The notes: generated from the letters alone by a model not told the origin. 64,000 nucleotides of DNA from Candidatus Omnitrophota bacterium (GCA_043805415.1 JAZDHZ010000003.1:28366-92365), one strand, 5' to 3'; shown: positions 2,372-55,665, counted from the first letter of the stretch. A program made the numbers and translations.

Positions 2372-3754
2372 ATGAGAAATCAAAAAAGCATCTTTAATCA
2401 TAACCCTGAGACATTGATTCTCTTTAACTTTTTTTTTGCGATTTTTTTTGGCGGATTATTATTGAAATTGCCGATAGCCAGCACTAAAGACGCGCTATCC
2501 TGGATAGACTCTTTTTTTATGTCGACTTCTGCTGTTTGCGTTACTGGATTGAGTGTGGCAGATATTGGTAAAGACCTGACAATGTTTGGTCAGATGGTTA
2601 TTCTCTTTCTTATCCAGCTCGGGGGATTAGGGATAATGACATTTTCCTTGCTGTTTATTATTCTACTCGGAAAAAAAATTGGACTGCATTCTAATCTTCA
2701 AATCCCGGATCTATCCCAGGACATAAGTTTTAAGAATATTAAATATTCTATACTCATGATCTTCGCAATGACTTTTTTTATCGAATCTGCTGGAGCTATT
2801 TTGTTGTTTTTTAACCTGAAGAATTACCATTCATTCCCTTTTGCTGTTTATAGCTCAATATTCCATTCTGTTTCGGCATTTTGCAACGCGGGTTTTAGTC
2901 TTTATTCAGATAGTTTTATTGGTTTTAATAATAATCCGTATATTATGGGGATATTGATGTTTTTGATTGTTCTGGGCGGCTTGGGATTTATCGTTATTTA
3001 TGAGGTTATCAGAATTATTTCGTTTAAAAGGAGTGTTAGTGAAAAGCTGTGTATCAGTCTGCATACAAAGATTGCTTTAGGGGGAAGTTTATTTTTTATT
3101 GTTTTCGGAGCAATCATTATTTTGTTGCTTGAGAGTCGGGGGATTATGCGCGGTATGCCCTTATCCCAGCAAATCCTTAATTCATTTTTTCTTTCAGTAA
3201 CTTCCCGTACCGCGGGTTTTAACGCGGTAGATACAGCATTATTGTCAAATCCTACTTTAATTCTGCTTTTGTTTTTTATGTTTGTCGGAGGCTGTCCTGG
3301 CTCAACCGCCGGAGGTATAAAAATACACACCTTTTTTTCTTTAATCGCTGTTTTCCGAAATAAGTTACGCGGACTTTCAATGGCAAGCCTTTTCAAAAGA
3401 AAGATACCTGATGCTGTTGTAAGCAGAGCTTTAACTATATGCATCACATCTTTCTTTATTATATTTATCGCGGTATTCTTACTGCAATTGTCGGAGAATG
3501 GAGCAATTTCTCATCTGGAAGTTAAGCAAAGGGAAGAATTTTTTGATACTCTTTTTGAGAGTGTATCAGCATTTGCTACCGTCGGATTATCGACAGGGAC
3601 AACGCTATGCTTATCGTCTTGGGGTAAAGGCATAATAATATTGTTAATGTTTGCAGGACGCGTAGGGCCGCTTACTTTAGGGATAGCTTTGCAAATGCGG
3701 CAGAAACGTAAACCTGTTTATGAGTTTCCGGTTGAAGAGATAATCTTAAGTTGA
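2372..3754 (+). CDS. ktrB: Potassium uptake protein, TrkH/KtrB family membrane subunit
   Basis: Multi-TM protein with repeated pore-like GxG segments (GLSVAD, GGLG, STGTT/GLSTG) typical of the TrkH/KtrB family. A TrkA/KtrA-like gene follows immediately with a 4-nt overlap. Start chosen at the internal ATG 2372 (MRNQKS..) because the upstream extension of the ORF-track frame is non-conserved. Confidence 0.75.
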   Translation: MRNQKSIFNHNPETLILFNFFFAIFFGGLLLKLPIASTKDALSWIDSFFMSTSAVCVTGLSVADIGKDLTMFGQMVILFLIQLGGLGIMTFSLLFIILLGKKIGLHSNLQIPDLSQDISFKNIKYSILMIFAMTFFIESAGAILLFFNLKNYHSFPFAVYSSIFHSVSAFCNAGFSLYSDSFIGFNNNPYIMGILMFLIVLGGLGFIVIYEVIRIISFKRSVSEKLCISLHTKIALGGSLFFIVFGAIIILLLESRGIMRGMPLSQQILNSFFLSVTSRTAGFNAVDTALLSNPTLILLLFFMFVGGCPGSTAGGIKIHTFFSLIAVFRNKLRGLSMASLFKRKIPDAVVSRALTICITSFFIIFIAVFLLQLSENGAISHLEVKQREEFFDTLFESVSAFATVGLSTGTTLCLSSWGKGIIILLMFAGRVGPLTLGIALQMRQKRKPVYEFPVEEIILS

Positions 3755-4422
3755 TAATAAAGGAGATAGATAATATGCAGAACATCCTGATCATTGGGCT
3801 AGGGCATTTCGGTTATTCGCTGGTTAAAGAATTGATAAAACATCCAGCGGAAATTATTGTTATCGAGAAAAACCAGGAAAGAGCGGGGCTGGTTAAAGAT
3901 ATGGTCGGACAAGTCATCGTAGCCAATGCAACAAATAAGGAGCTGTTGTTGAAGTTTAGCAAAGATGTGGATTGCGCGATTGTGTGTATAAGTGAAAAGA
4001 TAGACAGCAGCGTATTAATAACCTACTATCTGAAAGGAATGGGCATTAAAAAGATTATCGCCAAGGCATCAACCCTTGATCATGGGGAAATCTTAAAATC
4101 CATCGGGGCGAATGAAATCATCTATCCTGAAGAAGAAGCGGCAAAAAGAATAGCCAGAAACCTTATTGCCCCGGATATCCTGGATGTGATTAAATTCTCA
4201 GAAGAATTTGATATTATTGAATTTCCTGTGCCTGAGAATTTTTTAAGGAAAACCATAAAAGATCTTAAGCTGCGAAACAAATATAACATCGAGATCTTGG
4301 CTGTCAGGAATCCTTTGACCGGTAAAACCAAAATTATGCCGACTGCTGATTATGAGTTTGCTCCGGATGATGTTATAATTTTTGTCGGAGAAACTGAATC
4401 AATGAAAAAACTTAATCAGTAA
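3751..4422 (+). CDS. ktrA: Potassium uptake regulatory subunit, TrkA/KtrA (RCK_N Rossmann plus RCK_C)
   Basis: N-terminal IIGLGHFGYSLVKEL is a GxGxxG NAD-binding motif. Size is 223 aa. Translationally coupled to ktrB. Confidence 0.75.
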   Translation: MIIKEIDNMQNILIIGLGHFGYSLVKELIKHPAEIIVIEKNQERAGLVKDMVGQVIVANATNKELLLKFSKDVDCAIVCISEKIDSSVLITYYLKGMGIKKIIAKASTLDHGEILKSIGANEIIYPEEEAAKRIARNLIAPDILDVIKFSEEFDIIEFPVPENFLRKTIKDLKLRNKYNIEILAVRNPLTGKTKIMPTADYEFAPDDVIIFVGETESMKKLNQ

Positions 4423-4548
4423 CAAACGGAATAAGTCTTGAAAGTAATAAAGCCGTGAAAATTTCAAAGCTTTTAGCTATGCAAGGTCTAGAGTTAAACA
4501 AAACTGTTTTTTAATAATTAGAAGTATAAGAAAGTTGAGGGTAGGGAG

Positions 4549-5526
4549 ATGGGTACGAGAAAATTGGGATTTTTGGTTTTTAATATTATGCTTTGTTTTT
4601 TAATTAATCATCTAATCGCGGAAATGTCATGGACAGGGGAAGAGAAAAAAGAAGAAAAAGTAAAAAAGGAAGTTATTGAGCTGCAGGATAAATTTCAATG
4701 GTGGCCTACTGACGCGAAGCCGGGTATATTTAAAGACCCTGAGCGCAGCGGATATTGGTGGTGGCCTAAAGAACCGGGAGAAATGCGGCCTTGGGGAAAT
4801 CAGGGATATGTATTTGTTAATAAAATCATTTATGATTATAAACAAGAGGAAGATGAGCCGATAGCTGAACCCGCGCAGGAATTAAAACCATCTTTACTTA
4901 TTAAAAAAATAATAAAAAACGTAAAGATTTATTTTGATTATAACAAGGCTCAATTAAGGAATGATCACTATCCTGTTTTAGATAAAGCTGTGGATAGCTT
5001 AAAACGTAATCCTGAGGCAAGTATTTTAGTGACCGGTAATTGTGATAAAAGAGGATCCGAGGAATATAATCTGAAGCTTGGCAAAAAAAGAGGACAAGTT
5101 ATTAAGGAGTATATGCTTGAAAAAGGTATCCCGGATGAGCGAATCCTTATTGTAAGCAGGGGGAAACTGGACGCGGTTGCTCCGGTAAGTGATTTGGCGG
5201 GTATGCAAAAAGATAGAAACGCCCAATTCATGGTCGCGGAAGTTGAAGAGATTATGATCCCGGCAAGGGAGACGGAAAACATAAAAGACGCTAAGGAAAT
5301 CGAAGAAGGGAAATATATCATAGAAAAAGAAGAACAAGTGGAGACTTCTTTAAAAGTATCAACCCGCGATTATATTATTCAAAAGGGTGATAGTTTGTCA
5401 AAAATTGCGAAACAAGAGCTTGGCAGCGGACATCGATGGAAATTTCTTTATGAATTAAATAAAGATGTGATTAGGGATCCCAATAAGTTGAAAGTTGGTC
5501 AGAAAATTATTATTCCTATTGAATAA
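4549..5526 (+). CDS. Envelope protein with OmpA-like peptidoglycan-binding domain and C-terminal LysM domain
   Basis: N-terminal hydrophobic signal. OmpA_C-like segment NCDKRGSEEYNLKLGKKRGQVIKEYMLEKGIPDERI. C-terminal LysM (YIIQKGDSLSKIAKQELG...KLKVGQKIIIP). Confidence 0.6.
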   Translation: MGTRKLGFLVFNIMLCFLINHLIAEMSWTGEEKKEEKVKKEVIELQDKFQWWPTDAKPGIFKDPERSGYWWWPKEPGEMRPWGNQGYVFVNKIIYDYKQEEDEPIAEPAQELKPSLLIKKIIKNVKIYFDYNKAQLRNDHYPVLDKAVDSLKRNPEASILVTGNCDKRGSEEYNLKLGKKRGQVIKEYMLEKGIPDERILIVSRGKLDAVAPVSDLAGMQKDRNAQFMVAEVEEIMIPARETENIKDAKEIEEGKYIIEKEEQVETSLKVSTRDYIIQKGDSLSKIAKQELGSGHRWKFLYELNKDVIRDPNKLKVGQKIIIPIE

Positions 5527-8252: not shown

Positions 8253-9185
8253 ATGGAAAACAATAAAAAGCCTTTTGTCCTATTTTTAGTTGGGCCCACA
8301 GCTTGTGGGAAAACAGCAACTGCTATTGAGATTGCAAAAAAAATCAATGCGGAAATTATCTCGGCAGATTCAATGCAGGTTTATAAAGGCATGGATATTT
8401 TAAGCGCAAAACCAACCCTTACTGAGCAAAAAGAAATACCGCATCATTTGATTGATATATTAGAGCCAAGTGAGGAATACAGTGTAGCGATTTTTCGCCA
8501 AAAAGCACTCAATTGTATAGAACAGATAATAAGCCGCGAAAAAATACCTTTAATTGTCGGCGGTACAGGCATGTATGTAAAAGTTTTGACCAAAGGACTT
8601 TTTTCAGATAATGGTAAGGATGAGCAGGTGCGCAAAGAGTTGACCCAAGAAGCCAAACACAAGGGCAATGAATATCTTTATGAGCGGTTAAAACAAGTTG
8701 ATCCGAAAGCCGCGGATAAAATTCATCAGAATGATATGCGTCGGGTTATTCGGGCGCTTGAAGTTTATGAGTTGAGTAACCGGACAATCACGGAGCTAAA
8801 AACAGAGATCCAAGGACTGGGTGAAAAATATAATTTTAAAATATTTGGCATTGACAGAGATCGCCGAGAGCTTTATCAGCGGATTGATCAAAGAGTTGAG
8901 CAAATGTTTGAAGCCGGGTTTTTAGATGAAGTTAAAACATTGCTAAGCAATGAATTAAGTCATACGGCCAGACAGGCATTGGGCATAAAACAAATCAGAG
9001 AATATCTAGATGATAAATGTACTTTGGATTTTGCCCGGGAAATAATCAAGCGTGATAGCCGGCGTTTTGCCAAGCGTCAGCTTACTTGGTTTAGACAGGA
9101 AAAAGACATAATCTGGATCCAGGCGAATAATGAAACAACCCCTCAAGAAACAGCAGAAAAAATCATTCCTTTATTAACCATTTAA
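8253..9185 (+). CDS. miaA: tRNA dimethylallyltransferase
   Basis: FLVGPTACGKTATAIEIAKKINAEIISADSMQVYKGMDI is the canonical MiaA P-loop and N-terminus. Size is 310 aa. Confidence 0.85.
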   Translation: MENNKKPFVLFLVGPTACGKTATAIEIAKKINAEIISADSMQVYKGMDILSAKPTLTEQKEIPHHLIDILEPSEEYSVAIFRQKALNCIEQIISREKIPLIVGGTGMYVKVLTKGLFSDNGKDEQVRKELTQEAKHKGNEYLYERLKQVDPKAADKIHQNDMRRVIRALEVYELSNRTITELKTEIQGLGEKYNFKIFGIDRDRRELYQRIDQRVEQMFEAGFLDEVKTLLSNELSHTARQALGIKQIREYLDDKCTLDFAREIIKRDSRRFAKRQLTWFRQEKDIIWIQANNETTPQETAEKIIPLLTI

Positions 9186-9257: not shown

Positions 9258-9445
9258 TTCAAAAAACTGCCTCGTATTTTTGCAAAAAGCCATTTTCTAT
9301 GGTATACTTTTACGTTTTTGTAATTCCCTAAACAGCTGCAAGCTTTTTAAGCGTAACATTATTAAAAATCAATAGGTTGTAGGATTACTAAAGTGCGGGA
9401 TTAAGCATGTTTGTAATTCAGTTTAAGCCGATAAGGAATCTTTAA

Positions 9446-12400
9446 ATGAATAAGTTGTTATTTAAAACAACAATCTTTGTCTTAATTCAATTGCTTGTCC
9501 TTGGCAACATTGTCATAAAAACAGATAGTTTGTGCTTAGCCGCGGATAGGTTTTTCTTGGCAGAAGAACATAATCTATCTCCCCGGATAAATATAGATAA
9601 TGTCATATTAAATAATATGTTTATCAATGGCTTTCCAGTATTAGAGCCAGCTAATTATCAGCAAGATTATATTGCTCAAGATAGTAATTTAATGAATCGA
9701 ATAACCAACTATGCTCTAAGGAAAAAAAAGGAGAATGAAGGTAAGGGGATTTTCCGTCAAAATCCTGTTTATCTTATGCTTAAAAGCAGAATAGATAGAA
9801 TTGAAAAACGCGGCACACCGTATAATGTTAAAGCTAAACAAAGAAAAGAGTTGCTTAAAGATGTTAACAGATTAAAAAAGCTTTTTGGCGAGCGAATAAA
9901 GTGGATTAAACCTGGTTTAGCAAAAGAATATGATACGCAGATTAATGAGCTTGAGCGATTATTAGATGCAGTGCAAACTCAAGGAGATTGGGATGATTTA
10001 GTGGCTTTAGGAATTAAATTAAATAAGGCCTTATTAAAGCATGGACGTTTAGCTAAGGAACTGGCAGTATTTAGCGGGACTAGAAAAAAGAAAAAACTAC
10101 CAAACAGCGTTGAAAAAAAAGAAAAACCTAAAAAGCCGATAACTACCGCGATACAAAACCAGTCTGAACCAGCAAAAGAAATTCAGGAAGAATCATTGCC
10201 TGATCCAGAGCAGCTAAAGGATGAATTAGCCGCAGCTGAGTTAGAGATTCCTGAACCAGATGTTTTGAAAAAATACTTAGAGCTAAATGCCGGGCAATTA
10301 CCAAAATTTATTTTGGCTACTGGTTCACGCCGAAAGCATGTTTTAGAAAAAGCATTTGAAAAATTAAATGAAGTATATAATTTGGCTTATCAAGATTTGC
10401 CTTATGAGATAGCTTTTGCTTTCCAGGAAAAGATTGACCAATTAAAACAGCGAATAGATGCTGTACAAAAAGGAGAGTTCCCGGCGCTTAAACAAGATCT
10501 TAGAGCCTTGGAAACTGACCTTGTCCAGGCGATAGCAGACAATAATCAAGCAAAAGCAGCTGCCGCGTTGCGGCAAATAGAAAATATCGGGATCGCTAAT
10601 CCGCAGAATCAAGATAATCAGACTCCTCACGTTCCAAAGGTAAAAAAACCAACTGAACAGGTAGATTCCTTTGCTCAAGCAGTAACTTTATACGATCCGG
10701 ATAAAGTTAAACTGCGTTCACTTAAGGACGTGATTAATGAGTTGCAGGGGCAAATTAATTTACTTGATCAAATAATCAACGCCGAAATGCTCAACAGTAT
10801 GGAGCTGCCGGTCTATAATGCAAGAAGGGAAGCGGATGGACTGGTTATACAGATAAATTTCTCAGAGGCTTTGGAAAAAATCGAGGTTGGTAGTGACATA
10901 ATAATGGATCTTAGAGGAAAAATCTATTTGTTTAAATGCGATAAGCTGCTTAACTCCGGCGGTAATTTACTTTTAAAACCAGCAAATAAAAAAGGAGTGT
11001 TTCCGGATAATTTTCCTCAGGATATAAGCGGAGGAAAATTTGTTTATATGCCAAGCACTCATTCTGAAGATATGCAGAAAAAAACATTAGAAGCAATTAC
11101 GAATAAAATAGGCGGACAGAATCAAAGCACTGGGATAAAAGTCTTAGATTATTTTCTCAGAATTAAATCCGCGGCAAGGGATATCGAGGAGATCGATGAG
11201 TTAAAAGAAGCGATTGCTTATACCGATGGCTTGGACATGTTTCAAAAAGCAGCGGTAAATATGATTGTAAAAACTAAGTTTGGTTTGATTTTAGGCCCCT
11301 TCGGAACCGGCAAGACAAGTGTCTTACTTGCCGGAGCAAAGAATATTATTTTTAAAAATAAAAAACCGGTTTTCATTATTGCTCCTCAGCATAAGATCGC
11401 GGATGATATTACTTTAAAAGCAGGAGATTGCCAAATCCCGGTGCTGCGTTGCGGTAATAATCTGAGCAAATTTAATCCAGCAGTGCTGAACAAATACAGC
11501 CGTCACTCAGAAACAGGGCAAATAGAGTTTATGCGCAGGTATAAACAGCTAAATACAAGCAACGAAGATAATGGCTGTTTATTTGTGGGAACTGATATGG
11601 GCGCAAGCTTTGACTGGTTGATTAATCAATTGCGCGATCCGGAATCAGCCGCATTTTTAAAAGATGTTACTTTGATTGTTGATGAGGCTGCGCTGATTAA
11701 TTATCCGGAATTAATTACCGCTATTTATATGCTGCGGCCTGATGCTTTGATCTTAGTTGGCGATCATGTCCAGTTTTCGCCTTACAAATTAGCGGCAAGA
11801 TTCTCGAGTCGGATAATGAGTTCATTCCGGAGAAATATTTCGAAAAAAGCTATTTACCGGTATCATATCAGTTCATTTAAAGAACTGATTTCAATGCGGT
11901 TTAATAAAGTAAACCTGTTAATTAATTATCGAAATCCATGGATAAACGTTGATTTGCTTCAGGAATGGTATAAAGGTGTGCTTAATTTGCAGAGTATCAG
12001 CAAACAAAGAGGAGAGCTTATAGAAGAAGATACTTTTGTTATTGAAGATACTTCAACCTGGGAAAAGCAATCATTCGCGGAGAAGTATCATTATGGTAAT
12101 AGTTTTTGTAATAAAACAGAAGCGCTCTGGATTTTAAAAAGAATCAAATATTTTTTAGCTAAAGGCAATATCGCGGATGATATCACAATTATAACTTATT
12201 ATAATGGACAAATCCGGTTAATAAGCGATTTGATTGATGCTGATGGAGATATTTCAAAAGCGGATAGTCTAATATTAAAGCGGAATATTTTTACTCCCAT
12301 AAGTTTTCAGGGAGGAGAAAATAAGATTTTATTAGCTTCGCTGGTTAGAAGTGAAGCTGATACCACTGGTATGGGAGCATCCAGCACTAAAAAATCAAAT

Positions 12401-12670
12401 CCAGTATTTTTATCAGAGCCTGAATTCGCCAAGGCAGAAGCATTATTGGTACTACTAAGCCGGCATAAAGGTAAACTTGGTGTGATCGGAAACAGAGATA
12501 CCTTAGACGCGCTGACTAAACACCGATATCAGCGCATAAACTATTTATATTCATGCTTGTTTAAGCATAAAGATAAGATTAAAGCATGTTTAAATATTCA
12601 GAATATCGAATTAACAAGCAATCGAGCAGCGGATATTAGTCGGCATGATTTTATTCAGTCGGCGATATAA
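9446..12670 (+). CDS. Large protein: N-terminal hydrophobic signal/anchor, ~550 aa coiled-coil/K,E-rich region, C-terminal Upf1-like SF1 helicase core (AAA_11/AAA_12)
   Basis: The C-terminal half contains helicase motifs in canonical order: Q-like LDMFQKAAV, Walker A GPFGTGKTS, Walker B LIVDEAALI, motif III LVGDHVQFSPY, motif IV LINYRNPWI...WYKGVL, ITYYNGQ, FQGGENKILL and the GFLSEP...AEALLVLLSRHKGKLGVIGN arginine-finger region. The N-terminus MNKLLFKTTIFVLIQLLVLG is strongly hydrophobic. Confidence 0.6.
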   Translation: MNKLLFKTTIFVLIQLLVLGNIVIKTDSLCLAADRFFLAEEHNLSPRINIDNVILNNMFINGFPVLEPANYQQDYIAQDSNLMNRITNYALRKKKENEGKGIFRQNPVYLMLKSRIDRIEKRGTPYNVKAKQRKELLKDVNRLKKLFGERIKWIKPGLAKEYDTQINELERLLDAVQTQGDWDDLVALGIKLNKALLKHGRLAKELAVFSGTRKKKKLPNSVEKKEKPKKPITTAIQNQSEPAKEIQEESLPDPEQLKDELAAAELEIPEPDVLKKYLELNAGQLPKFILATGSRRKHVLEKAFEKLNEVYNLAYQDLPYEIAFAFQEKIDQLKQRIDAVQKGEFPALKQDLRALETDLVQAIADNNQAKAAAALRQIENIGIANPQNQDNQTPHVPKVKKPTEQVDSFAQAVTLYDPDKVKLRSLKDVINELQGQINLLDQIINAEMLNSMELPVYNARREADGLVIQINFSEALEKIEVGSDIIMDLRGKIYLFKCDKLLNSGGNLLLKPANKKGVFPDNFPQDISGGKFVYMPSTHSEDMQKKTLEAITNKIGGQNQSTGIKVLDYFLRIKSAARDIEEIDELKEAIAYTDGLDMFQKAAVNMIVKTKFGLILGPFGTGKTSVLLAGAKNIIFKNKKPVFIIAPQHKIADDITLKAGDCQIPVLRCGNNLSKFNPAVLNKYSRHSETGQIEFMRRYKQLNTSNEDNGCLFVGTDMGASFDWLINQLRDPESAAFLKDVTLIVDEAALINYPELITAIYMLRPDALILVGDHVQFSPYKLAARFSSRIMSSFRRNISKKAIYRYHISSFKELISMRFNKVNLLINYRNPWINVDLLQEWYKGVLNLQSISKQRGELIEEDTFVIEDTSTWEKQSFAEKYHYGNSFCNKTEALWILKRIKYFLAKGNIADDITIITYYNGQIRLISDLIDADGDISKADSLILKRNIFTPISFQGGENKILLASLVRSEADTTGMGASSTKKSNPVFLSEPEFAKAEALLVLLSRHKGKLGVIGNRDTLDALTKHRYQRINYLYSCLFKHKDKIKACLNIQNIELTSNRAADISRHDFIQSAI

Positions 12671-12804: not shown

Positions 12805-13644
12805 CTATTCAGATAGATGCTTGTGTAATTCATCGGCAAGAATGCCTATCCGCGCAAGAGACAAGTTTTCGCCGCGAATTGTAGGGCTGATATTAAGTTT
12901 TTCAAGAATTTCCAGGAGAATATCCTTTTTTAATTTCCAGCCAGCATTGGATAATCCATTGAGCAGAGTTTTTCTTCTTTGGGCAAATATCGCTCTGACC
13001 ACACTAAAAAATATTTTATCGGATTTAACGCTAATGCTTGGTTTATCTAAGATGGATAATTTAACCAAAGCTGAATCAACTTCAGGCTGAGGAAAGAACA
13101 TTGTCTTGGGGAATACTTCAAGAATCTCGGCTTTAGCGTAAAATTGTAATAAACAAGATAATCTGCCAAAATCTTTTTTCCCAGGGCCGGCAACAATCCG
13201 CTGGGCAACTTCTTTTTGCACAGTAATAAAGATACTGTCGATATATTCTTTTTGTTCTAATAAGTAATTGATTATCGGAGTTGTAATATAATAGGGCAGA
13301 TTGCCGATTACTTTGATCTTTTTACCTTGAAATATTTTTGTTAGATCAATTTTTAAAATATCACCGAGAATTATTTCAGCATTGGGATATGGTTTTAGCG
13401 CTTTTTTAAGAATCGGCTCAACTCTTCGATCTTTTTCAACAGCATAGAATTTGCCGGATTGCGCGGCAATCAGAACGCTCAAGTTCCCGATACCAGCACC
13501 GATTTCAAGCACTAGATCATCGGGGCAAAGGTGCGCGGATTTAACTATGGCATCAAGGGCAGCTTGGTCTGTAAGAAAATTCTGTCCCAGCCGCTTTTTA
13601 GCATGAATTTTATGCTTATCCAGAATGCTCTTGATGTGGGACAT
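12805..13644 (-). CDS. rsmA: 16S rRNA (adenine1518/1519-N6) dimethyltransferase
   Basis: KKRLGQNFLTDQAALDAIVKSA plus SAM motif LEIGAGIGNLS. Start chosen at MSHIKS (13644); the ORF-track frame extends further to 13713. Confidence 0.85.
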   Translation of the reverse strand: MSHIKSILDKHKIHAKKRLGQNFLTDQAALDAIVKSAHLCPDDLVLEIGAGIGNLSVLIAAQSGKFYAVEKDRRVEPILKKALKPYPNAEIILGDILKIDLTKIFQGKKIKVIGNLPYYITTPIINYLLEQKEYIDSIFITVQKEVAQRIVAGPGKKDFGRLSCLLQFYAKAEILEVFPKTMFFPQPEVDSALVKLSILDKPSISVKSDKIFFSVVRAIFAQRRKTLLNGLSNAGWKLKKDILLEILEKLNISPTIRGENLSLARIGILADELHKHLSE

Positions 13645-14674
13645 AAACTTTTGTTTTCTTTCTTGTTCGAGGCATATTATTTGCCATCTCAACCGCGAGT
13701 TTGATTGCTTCAATCATCGCGCTAGGATCAGCCTGATTCATTCCGGCAATATCAAAAGCCGTGCCATGATCAGGAGAGGTGCGGATAAACGGCAATCCCA
13801 GAGTTGTGTTTACGCCTTTATCAAAATATAAAGTCTTAAAAGGAATGCAAGCTTGATCATGATACATAGCGATTACAATATCAAATTCACCTTCTTTTGC
13901 TTTCCAGAACAAAGTGTCCGCGGGAAAAGGGCCTTCAACTTTTATTTTTTGAGCGCGGGCTTTTTTAATCGCCGGGATAATATGTTCTTTTTCTTCTGTT
14001 CCGAATAATCCGTCTTCACCGGCATGCGGATTTAAACCGCAAACCGCGATTCTGGGTTTTTTTATGCCAAAATGTGTGATCATTGTTCTATGCGCGGCAA
14101 AAATAGTATCCTGGATTTCTTTACGGGTGATTAAAGGCGCGACATTTTTAAGCGGAATATGGATAGTGACAAGCATGACTTTTAACTTACCACCCACAAA
14201 CATCATTCTCGCGTAACGGGCTTTAAACCTCTGCGCAAGAATCTGAGTATGCCCTTGAAAATGATGCCCCGCTAAATTCAAAGACTCTTTATTAATCGGA
14301 GCAGTTACCAGCCCGTCCAAATTCTTGCTTGAGCGGAGTAAAAGGCAGGCCATATTAATATACTCATATGCTGATTTTCCGCAGCGAGCGTCGATTTTAC
14401 CATAAGGAATTTTATAGGTCACATTTCCCAGGTTAATGAAGTTTATCATTTCTTCACTTAAGTTCAGCTTTCCAATATCAGAGAGGATGTGGAAATTAAA
14501 GGGTTTCATATTAAGCTGTCTTTGAATATGAGTAGTTACGCCATAATCACCAATTAAAAGAAAACTGGCAGATTCACGCAGCTTTTTATCGCTCAATGCT
14601 TTTAAAGTTATTTCTGCCCCAATTCCCGCTGGGTCGCCTAAGGTTATTCCAATTCTAACTTTTTTCTTTTTCAT
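13616..14674 (-). CDS. pdxA: 4-hydroxythreonine-4-phosphate dehydrogenase
   Basis: N-terminal RIGITLGDPAGIGAEITLKAL and overall PdxA-length protein. surA-pdxA-ksgA order as in proteobacterial operons. Confidence 0.75.
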   Translation of the reverse strand: MKKKKVRIGITLGDPAGIGAEITLKALSDKKLRESASFLLIGDYGVTTHIQRQLNMKPFNFHILSDIGKLNLSEEMINFINLGNVTYKIPYGKIDARCGKSAYEYINMACLLLRSSKNLDGLVTAPINKESLNLAGHHFQGHTQILAQRFKARYARMMFVGGKLKVMLVTIHIPLKNVAPLITRKEIQDTIFAAHRTMITHFGIKKPRIAVCGLNPHAGEDGLFGTEEKEHIIPAIKKARAQKIKVEGPFPADTLFWKAKEGEFDIVIAMYHDQACIPFKTLYFDKGVNTTLGLPFIRTSPDHGTAFDIAGMNQADPSAMIEAIKLAVEMANNMPRTRKKTKVYVPHQEHSG

Positions 14675-15739: not shown

Positions 15740-17611
15740 CTAATCAGAGGGGAGAGCTTTTTTGATTTGTTCGATGGCAGTGTTTAAAAGCTGGCAATAC
15801 AGGTCAAAACCCACAGCAAGGATAAACCCATGCTGCTGTTCTCCCAAGAGATTGCCAGCGCCGCGGATTTCAAGATCTTCCATGGCAATCTTAAATCCAG
15901 AGCCAAGAGCAGTGAATTTTTGAATAGATTTGAGTCTTTTTTTGGCTTGGGGGTTAAAAGTAGCGTGTTTTGGGGTTAAAAAGAAGGAATAAGCTTTTTT
16001 ATCCAGTCGGCCGACTCTGCCTCTTAACTGGTATAAATCAGCTAAGCCGAAGTTTTGGGCATTATTAACAATTAAAGTATTGGCATTAGGGATGTCCAGT
16101 CCTGATTCCACAATGGTAGTGGCAAGCAAGACATCAATTTTATGCTCAATAAAATCAATCATAACTTTTTCCAGTTCTTTTTCATGCATTTGTCCATGGC
16201 CAATGGCAATTCTGGCATCAGGCACAAGGGCTTGTAAATGTTCATGCATTTGGGCAATATCTTTAACCCGGTTATGAATAAAATAAACTTGGCCGTTTCG
16301 CTCAAGTTCATTAGTAATCGCGTTTTTAACCAGTTCATCATCAAACAAGCAGACGAAAGTCTCAATCGGCATTCTTTGCTCCGGCGGAGTATTAATCGTG
16401 GACATATCTTTAACTCCGAGCAAGGACATGTAAAGCGTCCGGGGAATAGGCGTGGCAGTTAAGGTTAATACATCGACAAGTTCCCGGATATGTTTAAGTT
16501 TTTCTTTGGCTTTTACCCCAAACCGCTGCTCTTCATCAATAATAATAATTCCTAATTCTTTAAACTGAATATCGTCAGATAAAAGGCGGTGCGTGCCAAT
16601 AACAATATCCACGCTTCCTTTGGCTAAATCCTCAATTATTTTAGCCTGTTCTCCCGCTGTCTTGAATCGGCTGAGCATCTGAACATTAACCGGAAAATCT
16701 TTTACCCGGGCGGTTAGATTATGGTAATGCTGTTCGGCTAGGATGGTGGTGGGCACAAGCATGGCAACCTGCTTATTATTCATTACTGCTTTAAAGGCGG
16801 CCCGAAAAGCAATTTCGGTTTTTCCATACCCCACATCACCGCAAAGTAATCTATCCATCGGCCGGGGCATTTCCATGTCTTTTTTTGTTTCCAGCCAGCT
16901 TTTTTTCTGATCAGGAGTTTCAGTGTAGGGAAAGCTTTTTTCAAATTCTTTTTGCCAGGGAGTCTTTGAGGAAAATGCTAAGCCGGATAAAGAATTTCTT
17001 TTTGCCTGAAGTTTTAGCAGCTCAAGCGCATAACTGGTAATTCCTTGTTTGGTTTTGTTTTTTGTGCTTTGCCAGAGTTTGCCCCCAAGTTTGTGCAAAC
17101 GCGGGGCATGGCCGGCAAAGCCGATATATTTTTGTAAAAGATGTTTTTCCGCTAGGGGAATATACAATTTATCATTATCAGCATATTCAATCTTTATGTG
17201 TTTTCCATTCTTAAGCATCACAATGCCCAGGTATTTGCCAATGCCATGGTCAAGGTGCACAACATAATCATTTTTTTCCAGTTCTTCAAACTTATTGATT
17301 GATACACGCTCGATCTCAATAGTATGCATTGCCGAGCGCTTAGGCAAGATAATCAGAGGGCTTTGATCATTTATTTTTTGGCCGGTGGTTCTAGAAAAAG
17401 TAAATATTTTCTCAATTTCATTAAACGCCAGCTCAATCCTTACCGGGCTCTCATAATTGATCGGATATATATCAATTATCGAACCGCGATGGGCAAAATC
17501 ACCTTTTTGGGCAATCGCATCTACTTGTTCATAGCCGAAATTAATAAATTGCTCAAATGTCTTGTGCGTGTTAATAGTTTGCTTGAGATAAAATTTTAAA
17601 GTTCTAAACAT
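15740..17611 (-). CDS. mfd: Transcription-repair coupling factor (Mfd)-like translocase lacking the N-terminal UvrB-homology module and C-terminal D7
   Basis: GDFAHRGSIIDIYP (UvrB/Mfd motif), DYVVHLDHGIGKY (RNAP-interacting CarD/TRCF domain), LLCGDVGYGKTEIA (Walker A), DEEQRFGV and DLEIRGAGNLLGEQQHGF...GFDLY (TRG motif). Only 623 aa, versus ~1150 for canonical Mfd. Confidence 0.65.
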   Translation of the reverse strand: MFRTLKFYLKQTINTHKTFEQFINFGYEQVDAIAQKGDFAHRGSIIDIYPINYESPVRIELAFNEIEKIFTFSRTTGQKINDQSPLIILPKRSAMHTIEIERVSINKFEELEKNDYVVHLDHGIGKYLGIVMLKNGKHIKIEYADNDKLYIPLAEKHLLQKYIGFAGHAPRLHKLGGKLWQSTKNKTKQGITSYALELLKLQAKRNSLSGLAFSSKTPWQKEFEKSFPYTETPDQKKSWLETKKDMEMPRPMDRLLCGDVGYGKTEIAFRAAFKAVMNNKQVAMLVPTTILAEQHYHNLTARVKDFPVNVQMLSRFKTAGEQAKIIEDLAKGSVDIVIGTHRLLSDDIQFKELGIIIIDEEQRFGVKAKEKLKHIRELVDVLTLTATPIPRTLYMSLLGVKDMSTINTPPEQRMPIETFVCLFDDELVKNAITNELERNGQVYFIHNRVKDIAQMHEHLQALVPDARIAIGHGQMHEKELEKVMIDFIEHKIDVLLATTIVESGLDIPNANTLIVNNAQNFGLADLYQLRGRVGRLDKKAYSFFLTPKHATFNPQAKKRLKSIQKFTALGSGFKIAMEDLEIRGAGNLLGEQQHGFILAVGFDLYCQLLNTAIEQIKKALPSD

Positions 17612-18231: not shown

Positions 18232-18717
18232 GTGAGCAAAGATATGTTAAAAAAAACAACCATACATTTTCTTTTTGTCGGTATTCTATTCTCATTTGGA
18301 TTAGGGTGGATGCTAACTGCTATAGTCGGTATTTTGGCTGGCAATATATTCGAGATGCTGTTCAAAGGAGATCATTATTATTCTGCGAGTTTGCTTCTTA
18401 CTTTAATATCAATAGTTTTAATCGCTTTTTCGACTTATGTAGGCAATATGCTTTATTGCCGTGTGATATCTACACTTCAGCACAAAAAAGTTTTGCTTAT
18501 GTCTTCAGTTTTTTTCTGTATTCTTACTATTTTGATTTTAGGTGGACAACTGTTTTCTTCATATGATTTCGTGATGAATAATCTATCATTTTCCTATAGA
18601 AATCCAGGGAGGATATTTTTAATGTTTTCTCTTCCATTGATTAGAATAATTTTAATTCCTTTACAATATTTAATAATAAGCATTAGGTTTGAAAAGATAG
18701 AGGATAAATCCATTTAA
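18232..18717 (+). CDS. Small hypothetical integral membrane protein (4 predicted TM segments)
   Basis: Hydrophobic composition only. No recognisable motif. Confidence 0.35.
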   Translation: MSKDMLKKTTIHFLFVGILFSFGLGWMLTAIVGILAGNIFEMLFKGDHYYSASLLLTLISIVLIAFSTYVGNMLYCRVISTLQHKKVLLMSSVFFCILTILILGGQLFSSYDFVMNNLSFSYRNPGRIFLMFSLPLIRIILIPLQYLIISIRFEKIEDKSI

Positions 18718-20719: not shown

Positions 20720-22225
20720 ATGTCGAAGAAAAGAAATTATAGTCTAATAACAATTGCCGGGATATTAGTATTGCTAATATTATTTTCCCAGAAATCCGGA
20801 TTTTGTCTGTCGCCGCAAATGCTGCTGGATTCTTCTACCGTACAAAAAGCATTTGATCAAAAAAATGCTGAAGATAAGATTCTGCCTGCCATATTTTGGC
20901 AGGAGAGTTCTGTCTATGGCCAGGGGGCTAAAGAGTTCATGATAATGGCGCTTAAACAGCTGGGTTATAAAATAAATGTTTTAGAAGATTTTGATCAGCA
21001 GGAATTGCGCAAAGAAAAACCACCAATTGCTATTTTAAATCCTGAGTCTGCTAAAGAACTCGGTCCAATGCTCAGAACTTTAAACCCCAACATAAGGATA
21101 GTTATTGTTTCGAGTTATTTATTTAGTGATGCTGAAATAAGTTCCATGGGCGGAGATTATTATTTGCAAAAAAACTACAGTGTTTTGGAATTTGCAAAAT
21201 TCCTTAAGTTTTTAAAGCAAGAGATTGCTTTAAATCGTAAACAAAATAAGAATCATAGCCATCTTGAATTGCCGGAATGGTCTGCATACTCTGTTGACTC
21301 TATGGATAATCATCCTCAATTGCAAGCGCAGCTAGGTGAAAAAGCGCTTGAATACCAGAGGAGATTACTGAAAAGAAAAACAGATGGAGCCTTATTTTTT
21401 ATAAAAACCCGTTATCAGCCAAGACAGCCTAATCAGCTGGATTTTATCTGGCAGACAAAAAATGAGGCATCAAGGGAAAACGCGGCATTTGCTTTGGGCA
21501 GGTTTATGGATGCTAATGTGTGTGATATTATATTGCCGGAAAAAGAGCAGGCAAAAGCCTTAGCTTCCTATATTGGAGCATTGCCGGAGGATATATATCT
21601 GGTTAGGGCAGCTAATGATTATAAGCTTAGCGATGAACAGGTTAGGCAAAAAACATTTAAAAAAGCTTTTACCCGTAACCTGGTTTTAGCAATTTTAATC
21701 AGAAAATATGATTTTCATGCGGCAAATCATAGTCCTATTTCAGATGCGCAGGTTGCGATGATGTTTGATAATGACCAGTCATTTCATAAGGATTTAATAA
21801 ACATAAATATGTTTACCCTGGCATTTATGGAGAATTTCTTTCCAACATTTCGCTATAAGAGCATAAACGCAAGGCAATTATTAGATTTTATTTCGGTTGA
21901 AGAATTAGTCGCTGCAGTTGATTTTTGTGAAAATAAACTGGCTATCGGCAAAGTCTTAGACGAAATGGCCTATCGGCAGGTGGAGTCATTTATCCACATA
22001 GAGTACGCAGAAGCCAGGGCCAAGACATTACGGGCTGATATGTTAGAATTTTTTCAGGAAATCCTTGGTTTTAACCAGGTGTTTAAAAAGGGCACGCCTG
22101 AATATGAACAATTATCCCAAGAAATTACATATATAAGAGAAGCTTTATCCCAAGAAAAAGGTAATCTTAAAGCAAAAAACAATCAATTAGACAATGGGCA
22201 GGACTTGCTATTGGAATCAATATAA
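20720..22225 (+). CDS. Membrane-anchored hypothetical protein with pseudo-receiver-like segment and atypical kinase-like (DxHxxN ... FDNDQSF) region
   Basis: N-terminal TM/signal. Residues ~100-165 resemble the second half of a REC domain (NPNIRIVIVSS...GGDYYLQKNYSVLEFAKFLKFL). KYDFHAANHSP and MMFDNDQSF resemble the catalytic and activation loops of PI3/4K/HipA-like kinases. Confidence 0.45.
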   Translation: MSKKRNYSLITIAGILVLLILFSQKSGFCLSPQMLLDSSTVQKAFDQKNAEDKILPAIFWQESSVYGQGAKEFMIMALKQLGYKINVLEDFDQQELRKEKPPIAILNPESAKELGPMLRTLNPNIRIVIVSSYLFSDAEISSMGGDYYLQKNYSVLEFAKFLKFLKQEIALNRKQNKNHSHLELPEWSAYSVDSMDNHPQLQAQLGEKALEYQRRLLKRKTDGALFFIKTRYQPRQPNQLDFIWQTKNEASRENAAFALGRFMDANVCDIILPEKEQAKALASYIGALPEDIYLVRAANDYKLSDEQVRQKTFKKAFTRNLVLAILIRKYDFHAANHSPISDAQVAMMFDNDQSFHKDLININMFTLAFMENFFPTFRYKSINARQLLDFISVEELVAAVDFCENKLAIGKVLDEMAYRQVESFIHIEYAEARAKTLRADMLEFFQEILGFNQVFKKGTPEYEQLSQEITYIREALSQEKGNLKAKNNQLDNGQDLLLESI

Positions 22226-41748: not shown

Positions 41749-42810
41749 ATGATTAATCTTGCTATTTTAGTATTGCTTTTAGTTTTATGTGTTTTTGTGG
41801 TAGTGATTAGTTTTAAAAACCAGAAAAAAACACAGCCTGATGCTTTAGGGCTCATGCAGCAACAGCTTGAGAGTTTGCGTGGACAGGTAAATGAGTCAAT
41901 GCGGGATATGACTGGCAATATCGATCAAAAATTGCAGGCAATAACTCAGCAGTTATTTGTTTCTCAGCAAAGTGTCGGTGAGCGTCTTGATTCCGCGTCA
42001 CAGGTTTTTGGACAAGTGCAAAAAGATTTAGGTTTGCTTTCCGCAGCTACAGAACGTGTTTTTGAAGTGGGTAAAGATATTGCCAGCCTGCAAGAAATAT
42101 TAAAAGCTCCTAAAATAAGAGGTGGTTTAGGTGAATTATTTTTAGGGGATCTTTTAAGTCAGGTCTTGCCGGCATCGTGTGTAAAACAACAGTATAAGTT
42201 TAAAAACGGTGATATTGTTGATGCAGTTTTAACTCTTGGCCAAGGCATGGTTAGTATTGATTCTAAGTTTCCGCTGGAGAATTTTAAACGTTTGATAAAT
42301 GGTACAAATGAAGAGGAAAAACGTCTGGCACGCAAAACTTTTATCAATGATGTTAAAAAACATGTTGATAGTATAGCGAGTAAATATATTCTTCCAGATG
42401 AAGGAACTTTTGATTTTGCTTTAATGTATATTCCGGCAGAAAATGTTTATTATGAACTTATTATCAAAGATACTGATGATGATAAGAATTCTCTAAGTAC
42501 TTATGCTTTAAATAAAAAAGTTATTCCAGTCAGCCCCAATTCTTTTTATGCTTATTTGCAATCAATTCTCCTCGGGCTAAAGGGCTTAAGAGTTGAAAAA
42601 AACGCACAGCAGATCATGCAATATCTCGAACGCTTAAGAGGTGATCTGGGGCGGTTTAAGCAGGATTTTGAGGTCTTGGGTCGGCATATAGTGAATCTGA
42701 AAAATAAGTATGATGAGGCGGATAAAAGGATTAATACCTTTGAAGGTAAATTATTAATGGTTTGTCAGGTTGACCAGGAAAGTAATATATTAGACAATGC
42801 TGCAGAATAA
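41749..42810 (+). CDS. rmuC: DNA recombination protein RmuC family
   Basis: N-terminal TM, coiled coil, and IRGGLGELFLGDLLSQVLPAS...GDIVDAVLTLGQGMVSIDSKFPLENF matching the RmuC RGxWGExxL...PDxxxxLPxGxxxxIDAK core. Confidence 0.7.
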   Translation: MINLAILVLLLVLCVFVVVISFKNQKKTQPDALGLMQQQLESLRGQVNESMRDMTGNIDQKLQAITQQLFVSQQSVGERLDSASQVFGQVQKDLGLLSAATERVFEVGKDIASLQEILKAPKIRGGLGELFLGDLLSQVLPASCVKQQYKFKNGDIVDAVLTLGQGMVSIDSKFPLENFKRLINGTNEEEKRLARKTFINDVKKHVDSIASKYILPDEGTFDFALMYIPAENVYYELIIKDTDDDKNSLSTYALNKKVIPVSPNSFYAYLQSILLGLKGLRVEKNAQQIMQYLERLRGDLGRFKQDFEVLGRHIVNLKNKYDEADKRINTFEGKLLMVCQVDQESNILDNAAE

Positions 42811-43354
42811 CGATAAAAAAGCTGATAATCGAAAACATCCGAGGTTTATTCTTGTTCTTCCTTTACAAATTAGTACGGAAGATTTTACGCTTAATACAAC
42901 CTCGAAGAATATTAGCTGTGCCGGAGTTTTTTGTTATATTGATAGGTTTATTCCGATTAATACAAGTGTAAATGTCAGTATGAAACTGTATTATCTTGTT
43001 GATGGTCAAAAAGTGCAAAGAACAGTTAAATGCAACGCGAAAGTAGTGAGAATTGATTCGTCAGAAAACAGGGAGAGTGGGACTTGTCGGGTGGGTATTG
43101 CTTTTGATCAAATCGCAGGGGAAGACCGCGAAATACTTATAAAATATATACAAAAAAAGAATCTAAAAGAAGCTAAAGAATTAAAGAAATTATATTTAAG
43201 ATTAAAGGAAATGGCAGCACGACTTGTAGAGGTAGAAGAATGCCATCCTACGGCTGAACATTTCCGTAAGGTTATTAATACGGCGATCATTGAGCTTGAC
43301 GCGGCAGCACATATTTTAGATTACGAAATTAATGAGCTTAAAACTTTGGAATGA
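42797..43354 (+). CDS. PilZ-domain protein (paralog 1 of 3) with conserved C-terminal HPTAEHF helix
   Basis: RKHPR (RxxxR) followed ~24 aa later by NISCAG (D/NxSxxG), which is the c-di-GMP-binding PilZ signature. Confidence 0.6.
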   Translation: MLQNNDKKADNRKHPRFILVLPLQISTEDFTLNTTSKNISCAGVFCYIDRFIPINTSVNVSMKLYYLVDGQKVQRTVKCNAKVVRIDSSENRESGTCRVGIAFDQIAGEDREILIKYIQKKNLKEAKELKKLYLRLKEMAARLVEVEECHPTAEHFRKVINTAIIELDAAAHILDYEINELKTLE

Positions 43355-43910
43355 TATGAAAAAAGATTGCATTATTAAAAATAAAAGAATATATAATCGG
43401 TTTAAAGTAAATTTTCCCTTTGAAGTTATGGGCGATAACTTTTGTTTTAAAACAGAAATGAAAGATATTAGCTGTAGCGGGTTATTCTGTAGGAGCGAGC
43501 ATTATATAGCGCCTAAGACAAGATTAAAAGTGGTTTTAAATATTCCTCTTTGTAGGAATCAAAAAATAGAGAAAAAAATGTTTACCAGTTGGGGAAACGT
43601 AGTGCGGATTGATCCCCAAATGCAGAGTGCGGGAGCGGATTATAATCTGGGCATTGCCTTTAGCGGAATTTCTGAGACAGAAAAAGATCTTATTTTGAGC
43701 TTTATCCGGCAAAGGAATGTTAAAGAAGCGGAAGAGTTGCGGGATATGTATTATGAGCTTAAAAGAACAATTTCTGAGCTTGAAACATTAGAAGAATCGC
43801 ATCCGACCGCGGAGCATTTTTGTAAGGTTATTACTCAAGCAATTATGGAGCTTGATGGAGTGGCAAATAGTTTAGATCAGGAAATAACTGAAATTAAAAA
43901 AGCAAGTTAA
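43332..43910 (+). CDS. PilZ-domain protein (paralog 2 of 3) with conserved C-terminal HPTAEHF helix
   Basis: RIYNR followed by DISCSG. The C-terminal EESHPTAEHFCKVITQAIMELD is nearly identical in pattern to paralog 1. Confidence 0.6.
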   Translation: MSLKLWNDMKKDCIIKNKRIYNRFKVNFPFEVMGDNFCFKTEMKDISCSGLFCRSEHYIAPKTRLKVVLNIPLCRNQKIEKKMFTSWGNVVRIDPQMQSAGADYNLGIAFSGISETEKDLILSFIRQRNVKEAEELRDMYYELKRTISELETLEESHPTAEHFCKVITQAIMELDGVANSLDQEITEIKKAS

Positions 43911-43922
43911 AAAAGGTGAATA

Positions 43923-44306
43923 ATGTCTAGAGAAAATAGTCATTCGGAAAGAAGAACGGATAAGCGTTTTGATGTTCAATTGCCAATTAAAATTGGCGGA
44001 TCTGATTTTGAGATTGCTACTGATACAAAGAATATAAGTTCAACGGGAATTTATTGTCAAGTCGATCGGTTTCTACCCGTCATGACTAGGCTGTGCTTAA
44101 AAATGTCAATACCTTTAATCGAAAATAATCGAAAAGTAGAAAAAAATATTGATTGTAAAGCCGTGGTTGTAAGAATCAGGCCAGAATCTAGGCTGGAACA
44201 TATAAATAGTTATCAGCTTGGTCTTTTCTTTACAGATATTAAAAGTCAAGACAGAGAATTAATCAGTCGATATCTGCAGCATGCTTTTTTTGCTGGTAAC
44301 AATTAA
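43923..44306 (+). CDS. PilZ-domain protein (paralog 3 of 3, short)
   Basis: RRTDKR followed by NISSTG. Lacks the C-terminal extension of paralogs 1 and 2. Confidence 0.55.
   Translation: MSRENSHSERRTDKRFDVQLPIKIGGSDFEIATDTKNISSTGIYCQVDRFLPVMTRLCLKMSIPLIENNRKVEKNIDCKAVVVRIRPESRLEHINSYQLGLFFTDIKSQDRELISRYLQHAFFAGNN

Positions 44307-52115: not shown

Positions 52116-55665
<3,550 letters not shown>

Follow-up and report, generated by a model that had tools for sequence, protein, structure and literature searches.

Upf1-like helicases of superfamily 1B (SF1B), among them UPF1/NAM7, IGHMBP2, DNA2, SETX/Sen1 and ZNFX1, share a set of motifs, the RecA1 and RecA2 domains (Pfam AAA_11 and AAA_12), a 1B barrel and a stalk. 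All of these are found in a protein of 1074 residues that is encoded at positions 9446–12670 (+ strand) of a 64,000-nucleotide stretch of DNA from a Candidatus Omnitrophota bacterium (GCA_043805415.1, JAZDHZ010000003.1:28366-92365), which was analysed as a whole and is referred to here as the window. The helicase core itself is of an already known kind. The protein differs from the described Upf1-like helicases in sharing only 13–19% identity with them, in lacking their CH, nuclease or R3H accessory domains, in having an orphan N-terminal region of 390 residues, a Sec signal peptide and a terminal tag, and in being bacterial and limited to few Omnitrophota. This report concerns the helicase and its tag, which has one part at each end of the protein and also occurs on unrelated proteins encoded at the same site in related genomes.

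Helicases with this type of core are known from antiphage defence. The Mokosh system combines the helicase MkoA with a phospholipase D (PLD) nuclease (Millman et al., doi 10.1101/2022.05.11.491447), which is fused to the helicase in type II and encoded by an adjacent gene in type I; type I MkoA carries a Ser/Thr kinase domain. The window protein shares the Upf1-like, COG1112-type helicase core of Mokosh, but Pfam and PADLOC searches gave no PLD nuclease or Ser/Thr kinase domain either fused to it or adjacent (its neighbours are miaA and ksgA), and Mokosh proteins are cytoplasmic and lack a signal peptide. Nuclease–helicase immunity (Nhi) relies on a single multifunctional enzyme (PMC11084316). 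The window protein is likewise a single large Upf1-like helicase with an additional N-terminal module, but no nuclease domain or motif was detected in its residues 33–425 and it carries a predicted export signal.

The tag invites comparison with two groups of sorting signals. Two-signal sorting systems (LPXTG/sortase, PEP-CTERM/exosortase, GlyGly-CTERM/rhombosortase and the type IX secretion system, T9SS) use a Sec signal together with a C-terminal element, which is either a motif followed by a transmembrane (TM) helix and a basic tail or, in the T9SS, a β-sandwich C-terminal domain (CTD) of ~80 residues. Signals at the extreme C-terminus include PDZ ligands (x-[S/T/Q]-x-φ-COOH), KDEL for retention in the endoplasmic reticulum, the peroxisomal targeting signal PTS1 (SKL) and degrons of the ssrA/Tsp type. 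Like the first group, the tag consists of an N-terminal Sec signal and a C-terminal element, is carried by unrelated cargo and is lineage-limited. It differs in that its C-terminal element occupies ~4–6 residues at the extreme terminus, with neither a TM helix and basic tail nor a CTD of ~80 residues, in that an extra box follows the signal peptide, and in that the cargo consists of cytoplasmic-type enzymes; the helicase and eight proteins from the same site gave no match to a known C-terminal sorting domain in NCBIfam. Like the second group, the tail is a short motif tied to the free C-terminus, with an aliphatic final residue, and its occurrence with a signal peptide parallels the pairing of a signal peptide with KDEL. 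Its sequence is different, however, no receptor, PDZ protein or protease is linked to it, and the analogy is purely formal.

A related paradox is known from the same phylum, in which giant multi-enzyme proteins bear signal peptides or TM segments (doi 10.64898/2026.06.07.730766; doi 10.1101/2023.11.21.568195). Of the long Omnitrophota proteins, 94% bear such segments, and they are rich in PF08241, PF02518 and PF00534 (doi 10.64898/2026.06.07.730766). The tagged proteins combine the same methyltransferase (PF08241), HATPase_c (PF02518) and GT1 glycosyltransferase (PF00534) domains with signal peptides or TM segments; compared with the giants, as these are described, they are smaller (0.3–1.1 kaa) and single-module, and they are marked by a defined bipartite tag. 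No counterpart of the bipartite tag, of the orphan region or of an export signal on a superfamily 1 (SF1) helicase was found in Pfam, NCBIfam, PADLOC, PHROGs or the searchable literature. What appears to be new here is the conserved putative export signal on an SF1 helicase, the orphan region and, above all, the occurrence of one bipartite tag on unrelated enzymes.

The two-ended tag and the signal peptide

The helicase gene lies in a slot between miaA and ksgA, the content of which varies among related loci; the genes found in it are called cassettes here. The tag of the cassette proteins consists of a leader with an 'L(I/L)IQ' core, an N-terminal box (N-box) with the pattern '(D/N)(T/N)LSPR(I/V)x(I/L)xxxxLxxxF', located 10–20 residues past the predicted cleavage site, and a C-terminal φ-(I/V)-x-Q-(A/S)-I. 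In the window helicase the N-box is NLSPRINIDNVILNNMF (residues 43–59; 9572–9622, +), as identified by hold-out tests with hidden Markov models (HMMs) and by protein-level conservation, and the C-terminal tail comprises residues 1041–1074 (12566–12667, +), ending in FIQSAI (nucleotides 12650–12667). The corresponding ends elsewhere are IEQAI, TSQAI, IGQAI, INNAI, LEQSI and INRSI, and three distant helicases (P0014, P0015 and P0017) end in LINQSI, LISCAI and LAQSV, respectively. An alignment of N-termini placed the same tag on proteins of ~8 families, including a GHKL ATPase, a protein with repeats of the Fis-type helix–turn–helix (HTH), a GT1 glycosyltransferase, S-adenosylmethionine (SAM) methyltransferases and proteins of unknown function.

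An HMM of the tag scored tagged open reading frames (ORFs) at 28–76 bits and every other ORF, ordinary signal-peptide proteins included, at <11 bits. When the model was built only from the tags of the helicases and of a 501-residue window protein (described below), the tags of the partner proteins were the top non-training matches. Models from which one family was left out recovered the helicase (HEL), GHKL, HTH, MT442 and L016-315 families at E = 5e-10 to 7e-5, and the glycosyltransferase (GT) family weakly (9e-3). With the helicase family held out, the window helicase was recovered at E = 8e-6 (20.9 bits) and its orthologs at values down to 1.8e-9. Ordinary ORFs reached ≤8 bits in these hold-out tests once never-trained tagged ORFs were set aside; the top 'negative' was such an ORF, a methyltransferase of locus L016 that ends in WLEQAI and scored up to 26 bits. 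The two ends of the tag occur together: an ending of the form [QESNRT][AS]I is present in 16 of the 18 ORFs with the N-terminal tag, the other two having near-variants, and in two of 279 untagged ORFs (Fisher p = 2e-22, ~9 independent families), both of which have truncated N-termini.

Synonymous codons at the conserved tag residues are diverse (six for Leu, three for Ser, four for Pro and five for Arg, with ATA and ATT for Ile), all three stop codons are used after the tag, the DNA 3′ of tagged genes is unrelated between genes, and no direct or inverted repeats were found at the boundaries of the cassette genes. With diverse codons, varied stops and no boundary repeats, the tag is therefore conserved, and under selection, at the level of the protein and not of the DNA. 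The presence of a shared motif at both ends of the slot proteins suggests an undescribed protein-sorting tag in Omnitrophota.

A candidate second tagged protein of 501 residues is encoded in the window between fhs and rplM–rpsI (20720–22225, +). It has a signal-like leader and the sequence 'CLSPQMLLDSSTVQKAF', ends in LLLESI and has no family match; a hold-out model gave E = 1.4, a value at which its membership is not statistically secured. A multi-TM protein of 161 residues (18232–18717, +) ends in IEDKSI, loosely like the tail motif, and has no N-box; this ending is probably a coincidence.

The leader of the helicase has the architecture of a Sec-type signal peptide (residues 1–32; 9446–9541, +), with an n-region MNKLLFK (+2), an h-region that contains the 'LIQ' core and a predicted signal peptidase I (SPase I) site CLA↓AD. 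It is present in six of six orthologs; in one of these (P0004) the start had been called wrongly, and the leader is encoded in frame further upstream. Signal-peptide features were analysed heuristically in 17 tagged proteins and six bona fide exported controls. The tagged proteins have n-regions of +2 to +6, h-regions of 13–22 residues and a helix breaker (N, G or P) ahead of small residues at −3 and −1. Cleavage is predicted at residue 32 in the window protein and at residues 22–25 in other tagged proteins (CFA↓QE, VYA↓LD, VQA↓FN and AIA↓ED). Exported controls from the same loci show the same architecture (SurA, VFA↓QT at 23; OmpA-like protein, LIA↓EM at 24). The charge balance, with +2 to +6 on the N-terminal flank and ~0 or a negative charge on the C-terminal flank in most members, predicts an N-in/C-out orientation. 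The hydrophobic signal or anchor that the original prediction had placed in the first 25 residues is thus real, is conserved in six orthologs and has signal-peptide architecture, and the topological oddity that it had pointed out, an ATPase outside the cell, is a true paradox that is kept across the family.

A prepilin (class III) leader was considered and rejected. Prepilin signals have G at −1, F or M at +1 and E at +5. In the tagged proteins the residue ahead of the one four positions before Q is I, S, T or Y and not G, 'LIQ' resembles 'LIE' only superficially, and no N_methyl match was obtained at E ≤ 1.

The helicase module and the orphan N-terminal region

The ORF call at 9446–12670 is supported by an identical 1074-residue protein held by NCBI, from a Candidatus Omnitrophota metagenome-assembled genome (MAG), where it lies on a 97-kb contig, and by a six-member alignment. 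A Shine–Dalgarno sequence, AAGGAA, can be read 7 nucleotides 5′ of the ATG (9433–9438, +), and an in-frame stop codon directly 5′ of the ATG means that the start of the ORF cannot move further upstream. The GC content of the gene is native to the window. An extended −10 promoter of the gene's own had been proposed; the site exists (TTTGCA, 18 nucleotides, TG-TATACT; 9279–9308, +) but the evidence for it is weak, as such sites are no commoner in the region (nine observed) than in shuffled sequence (mean 13.7). No regulatory RNA was found near the gene: the only Rfam matches in the window are four tRNAs elsewhere, which form a cluster at 45032–45540 (+).

The helicase module takes up residues ~426–1040. 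Its core, which consists of RecA1 and RecA2 with motifs I, Ia, II, III, IV, V and VI (residues 591–1040; 11216–12565, +), was identified with Pfam, a PDB profile and Foldseek. The Pfam domains AAA_12 (1.5e-16) and AAA_11 (3e-8) both score over the gathering cut-off and, together with AAA_19 and AAA_30, span residues 597–1017. The motifs are GPFGTGKTS (617–625), APQHKIADD (646–654), LIVDEAALI (743–751, with VDEAA at 745–749), LVGDHVQFSPY (770–780, with GDHVQFSPY at 772–780), NYRNPWI (827–833), WYKGVL (841–846), FQGGENKILL (954–963), FLSEP (988–992), SRHKG (1005–1009) and GKLGVIGN (1009–1016). Motifs I (Walker A), Ia, II (DE), III, IV, V and VI (Arg finger) stand in canonical order. Because the catalytic residues are invariant in six of six orthologs, an active ATPase is expected, and the gene is expected to encode an active ATP-dependent Upf1-like (SF1B) RNA/DNA helicase. 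The motifs quoted in the original prediction are all present in the order given, apart from 'GFLSEP', which is a misreading of VFLSEP. The C-terminal ~470 residues that it had assigned to the helicase do hold a complete SF1 core, but the module is longer, at ~615–650 residues (about 426–1040).

A family profile searched against the PDB matched UPF1 (2.5e-13), NAM7, DNA2, ZNFX1 and Aquarius. An AlphaFold2 (AF2) model of the full-length protein had a mean predicted local distance difference test (pLDDT) score of 43.6 and was used for secondary structure only. A second model, of residues 405–1074 and based on a more diverse alignment of ten sequences, reached a pLDDT of 64 and a predicted template modelling (pTM) score of 0.57; its first ~370 residues have pLDDT values of 70–90, and RecA2 is poorly modelled. 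With this second model, the top 25 Foldseek matches were all Upf1-like SF1B helicases (Upf1, 8e-20; DNA2, 8e-19; also ZNFX1, IGHMBP2 and SETX/Sen1), with 585–670 of 670 columns aligned. The AF2 model has a β-barrel at ~452–535 flanked by helices at 426–448 and 539–590. As the Upf1-like matches align over nearly the full length, these elements (residues 426–590; 10721–11215, +) are the canonical 1B barrel and stalk, which are common to the distant relatives P0013–P0017.

The region ahead of the barrel, residues 33–425, is an orphan. It begins, after the N-box, with a basic helical domain (residues 66–215; 9641–10090, +) that has an invariant GDWDD (180–184) and KHG (198–200) and was found only in this helicase family. 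It continues with a K/E-rich linker that is predicted to be disordered and is poorly conserved (residues 216–296; 10091–10333, +; mean pairwise identity 20%, pLDDT ~22, 30% K+E), a helical hairpin or coiled-coil segment (residues 297–380; 10334–10585, +; helices at 297–379 with pLDDT 71–82) and a second low-complexity linker, also K/E-rich and disordered (residues 381–425; 10586–10720, +). An exhaustive HMMER search with residues 40–592 against 1.84 billion representatives returned only eight proteins, and none from outside the family matched residues 40–360. What the distant matches P0013–P0017, themselves AAA_11/AAA_12 helicases, have in common with the family is limited to the barrel and stalk. 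No nuclease, sensor or effector domain was found in residues 33–425, either in Pfam, where the region has no match, or in the HMMER search. The ~550-residue coiled coil described in the original prediction therefore stands in part: helical bundles are present at ~66–215 and 297–380, but K/E-rich disordered linkers lie between them, and residues 426–590 are the helicase's own barrel and stalk and hence a known helicase accessory. Its statement that the N-terminal part has no recognizable enzymatic motif holds for residues 33–425, which have no Pfam match and no relatives outside the family.

One of the distant relatives, P0013 of locus L019 (798 residues, truncated at both ends), has the same barrel and stalk and a different N-terminal region with an HExxH motif (VVHELAHLVED), which suggests a metalloprotease-like module fused to this type of helicase.

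The miaA/ksgA slot and its surroundings

The left border of the slot is miaA (8253–9185, +) and the right border is ksgA/rsmA (RrnaAD; 12805–13713, −), the first gene of a convergent ksgA–pdxA–surA–mfd block; the stand-alone ORF and both flanks agree with what had been predicted from the sequence. The picture of a plain single-gene insertion was not borne out, in that the content of the slot varies among loci. The helicase is the only cassette in the window and in L003. It is accompanied by the HTH and GHKL genes in L005 and by genes for a methyltransferase (MT), a GT, the protein 326, HTH and GHKL in L001 (in the order MT, GT, HEL, 326, HTH, GHKL). Locus L013 has the GHKL gene only, L014 has GT, GHKL and an ORF of 105 residues, and L016, from a distant lineage, has a fragment ending in ILQAI, followed by HEL, 315 and MT, adjoining ksgA–pdxA. 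The tagged cassette proteins are encoded at 2421–12830 in L001, 11219–14056 in L005, 10001–11416 in L013, 2618–5984 in L014 and 517–5750 in L016. Among them, the GHKL/HATPase_c protein has ~430 residues and no HisKA domain, the HTH protein has ~490 residues and about four Fis-type HTH repeats, and the GT1 enzyme resembles mannosylglucosylglycerate synthase (1.7e-52); there are also two different SAM-methyltransferase-like proteins and proteins of unknown function. An obligate operon of helicase, HTH and GHKL genes was rejected, since each gene is found without the others (HEL only in the window and L003, GHKL only in L013, GT and GHKL in L014). No remnants of the partner cassette genes were found in the window by tblastn.

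The miaA/ksgA site is a hypervariable cassette slot, and the cassette proteins evolve faster than the flanks. Judged by the flanking genes, L013 is the closest relative of the window (MiaA 86%, KsgA 87%, PdxA 96% and SurA 85% identity), yet it lacks the helicase at the same slot, as does L014, the closest relative of L001; the helicase is thus not a universal neighbour of miaA. Where flanking genes are 79–95% identical the helicase is 61–64% identical, and the GHKL proteins are 44–66% identical. The helicase family is small. Five full-length orthologs, with 59–66% identity, make up the six-member alignment with the window protein, and all are from Candidatus Omnitrophota, in keeping with the lineage restriction that had been suggested. 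Only these six close members were found in 5.8 billion proteins, together with about five distant relatives (1.8–5.8 billion searched), and the helicase occurs in only two of 185,579 GTDB species representatives. No relatives were found in IMG/VR viral contigs. A viral origin was rejected on this basis and because the PHROGs matches cover the generic helicase core only.

Some further features of the slot's surroundings and of the window were recorded. In L003, an insertion upstream of miaB (3421–4879) brings together a MerR-HTH gene, a fragment of UvrD and a gene for a Zn_ribbon_recom recombinase; it looks like the remnant of a mobile element near the variable slot. The mfd-like gene of the window (15740–17611, −) encodes only ~623 residues (UvrB_inter, CarD_TRCF_RID, DEAD and Helicase_C), and this short form is kept in the L003 and L005 relatives (92–95% identity); Escherichia coli Mfd is about twice as long. 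At 42797–44306 (+) there are three small paralogous ORFs in tandem, with 185, 192 and 127 residues. The first two share a C-terminal helix region with 'E(E/S)(C/H)HPTAEHF', and all three have similar N-terminal halves, which are possibly PilZ-like. Two adjacent signal-peptide proteins of 573 and 756 residues (50324–54386, +) have similar N-terminal domains of ~130 residues followed by long charged coiled-coil regions, and the 756-residue protein ends in TPR-like repeats.

Possible export or tethering, and the meaning of the tag

The best reading of these data, which we hold tentatively, is that the helicase is a Sec-exported, tag-sorted cargo or effector protein. It would be synthesized as a Sec pre-protein that leaves the cytoplasm of its producer, and would be one of a class of two-end-tagged cassette proteins, not described before, of a small Omnitrophota clade, with the cassette genes gained, lost and shuffled in the single hypervariable slot. 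SecYEG would translocate the unfolded pre-protein and SPase I would cut it near residue 32. The N-box and the C-terminal tail would then form a bipartite sorting signal for a putative receptor, the tail acting like a PDZ-type C-terminal ligand, and delivery beyond the cytoplasmic membrane would follow, the most plausible destination being a prey, host or competitor cell, where ATP is available. As the cargo needs ATP, SAM, nucleoside diphosphate (NDP) sugars or DNA, it would act as an effector in the cytoplasm of that other cell. There, the orphan basic N-terminal domains may guide the helicase as it moves 5′→3′ along single-stranded nucleic acid. That the protein is in fact exported and cleaved, that the tag serves for sorting, and where and on what the helicase acts are inferences. 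An exported tagged effector fits the predatory or host-dependent lifestyle that has been proposed for Omnitrophota (doi 10.1101/2023.11.21.568195), and likewise the combination, seen in giant proteins across the phylum, of methyltransferase, HATPase_c and GT1 domains with signal peptides or TM segments (doi 10.64898/2026.06.07.730766). It is possible, if doubtful, that the small clade has an undescribed sorting and delivery pathway, defined by a Sec leader, an LSPR box and a free C-terminal peptide of the IEQAI type, the cargo of which would be either effectors injected into prey or host or residents of a membrane-bounded compartment. In the compartment variant the cargo would be retained by a KDEL-like C-terminal signal. 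With such a pathway, the miaA/ksgA slot would serve as a locus for effector cassettes, and this helicase would be the first of the SF1 type known to be exported.

Several points weigh against export and sorting. Export is a heuristic prediction here; the hydrophobic stretch, measured crudely at 15–22 residues, would also suffice in length for an uncleaved anchor, and the L003 and L005 helicases carry a net charge of +2 just past the h-region. We know of no precedent for ATP-dependent enzymes outside the cytoplasm, and a secreted, periplasmic or extracellular helicase is not described in the searchable literature. Neither in the window nor in the loci was any machinery for sorting or delivery identified. 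The window genome has extensive biosynthesis and is not obviously that of an obligate parasite: the window is otherwise made up of housekeeping genes, among them those for arginine, lysine, NAD, pantothenate and purine biosynthesis, trigger factor and ClpP. With regard to the tag, the hold-out models miss two putative members, L001_326 and the 501-residue window protein. A tag profile of 13 sequences, searched against a large database, gave 239 word-sharing candidates, none at E ≤ 10, a result that reflects the word index and not absence; the same profile scores members at 64–76 bits locally. The sample is also small: ~9 loci and ~8 protein families, drawn entirely from MAGs or metagenomes.

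The main rival is that the helicase is tethered to the membrane, through an uncleaved anchor or an unconventional insertion, with most of its chain, up to the C-terminus, in the cytoplasm. Through the LSPR box and QAI tail, a family of enzymes would then be docked on one shared membrane scaffold or marked for turnover, and at the inner face of the membrane the helicase would act on nucleic acids that are incoming or belong to the cell itself. The cytoplasmic ATP, SAM, NDP-sugars or DNA that the tagged enzymes need would be at hand, the hydrophobic stretch has a suitable length, and a polar Q conserved inside the hydrophobic core (LIQ) may point to the helix–helix contacts typical of membrane proteins. 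Many of the multi-enzyme Omnitrophota proteins with signal peptides or TM segments are, moreover, read as anchored in the inner membrane with their catalytic content in the cytoplasm (doi 10.64898/2026.06.07.730766). Set against this are the positive-inside rule, which predicts N-in/C-out in most members, with no second TM segment to return the chain to the cytoplasm, and the conserved helix breakers and small −3/−1 residues at 22–25, the signature of a cleavable signal, for which an anchor has no need. The positive-inside rule and the cleavage-site features thus disfavour tethering, which we consider unlikely. Antiphage or anti-mobile-element defence, with the slot as a defence island and the helicase as a sensor or effector like Mokosh MkoA or Nhi, in some genomes together with the GHKL ATPase, HTH protein and methyltransferase, would account for the hypervariable content at a fixed locus and the fast evolution; rapid turnover at one site fits any conflict system. 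The inventory of helicase, methyltransferase, ATPase and HTH protein may also resemble modification-based defence systems, and the best PADLOC match is MkoA (2e-23). That match is limited to the helicase core (the two MkoA models, at 2.3e-23 and 1.3e-22, cover residues 744–1026 only), and the other PADLOC matches of the helicase and eight cassette proteins are likewise domain-level or very weak (mad1, mad2, mad8 and PDC-S68). Three proteins, among the window helicase and the cassette proteins of L001, gave weak domain-level matches to components of MADS (mad8, 0.0011; mad1, 0.007; mad2, 6e-5), a coincidence that is probably due to generic P-loop, HTH and methyltransferase similarity. The suggestion in the original prediction of a single-gene system of the Nhi or a similar type found no support: no nuclease, PLD, kinase or other effector domain is present in the helicase or beside it in the window, and there was no Nhi model among the PADLOC matches at E ≤ 1, the presence of such a model in the PADLOC copy used not being confirmed. 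The helicase is found without the GHKL protein and vice versa, so that they form no obligate operon, no known defence genes lie nearby, and viral contigs hold no relatives. Every cassette protein has a Sec-type signal and the common terminal tag, a combination not known, to our knowledge, among cytoplasmic defence proteins. A defence role is, on balance, improbable.

Two readings that dispense with a protein signal fare worse. A lineage-specific housekeeping helicase for RNA quality control or DNA repair, its odd N-terminus an artefact, would agree with the gene's shared place, in several genomes, beside translation and RNA-modification genes, with the native GC content and with the intact catalytic motifs. 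It is largely refuted, because the helicase is absent from close relatives at the same slot; in addition, its relatives and its hosts among GTDB representatives are few, it evolves much faster than the flanks, its leader is conserved and its ORF cannot start further upstream. We regard this explanation as very improbable. That the shared gene ends mark cassette boundaries in the DNA, as integron-like or recombination sites would, is suggested by the behaviour of the genes as mobile cassettes within a single slot; it was rejected on the diverse synonymous codons, the use of all three stops, the unrelated downstream DNA and the absence of boundary repeats, and we give it next to no chance.

If the tag does direct export, the helicase would be the first shown to leave its producer's cytoplasm, and one of a set of cofactor-dependent enzymes that share this route of export. 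The tag would then be a sequence-defined handle for cataloguing the secreted or effector proteome of Omnitrophota, a phylum without a cultured model. The tagged proteins, being small and single-domain, would be tractable stand-ins for the puzzle of the giant proteins, in which cytoplasmic-type enzymes likewise bear signal peptides or TM segments. Even if membrane tethering should prove correct, a two-ended tag on unrelated enzymes in a fast-turnover locus would be a new organizational principle.

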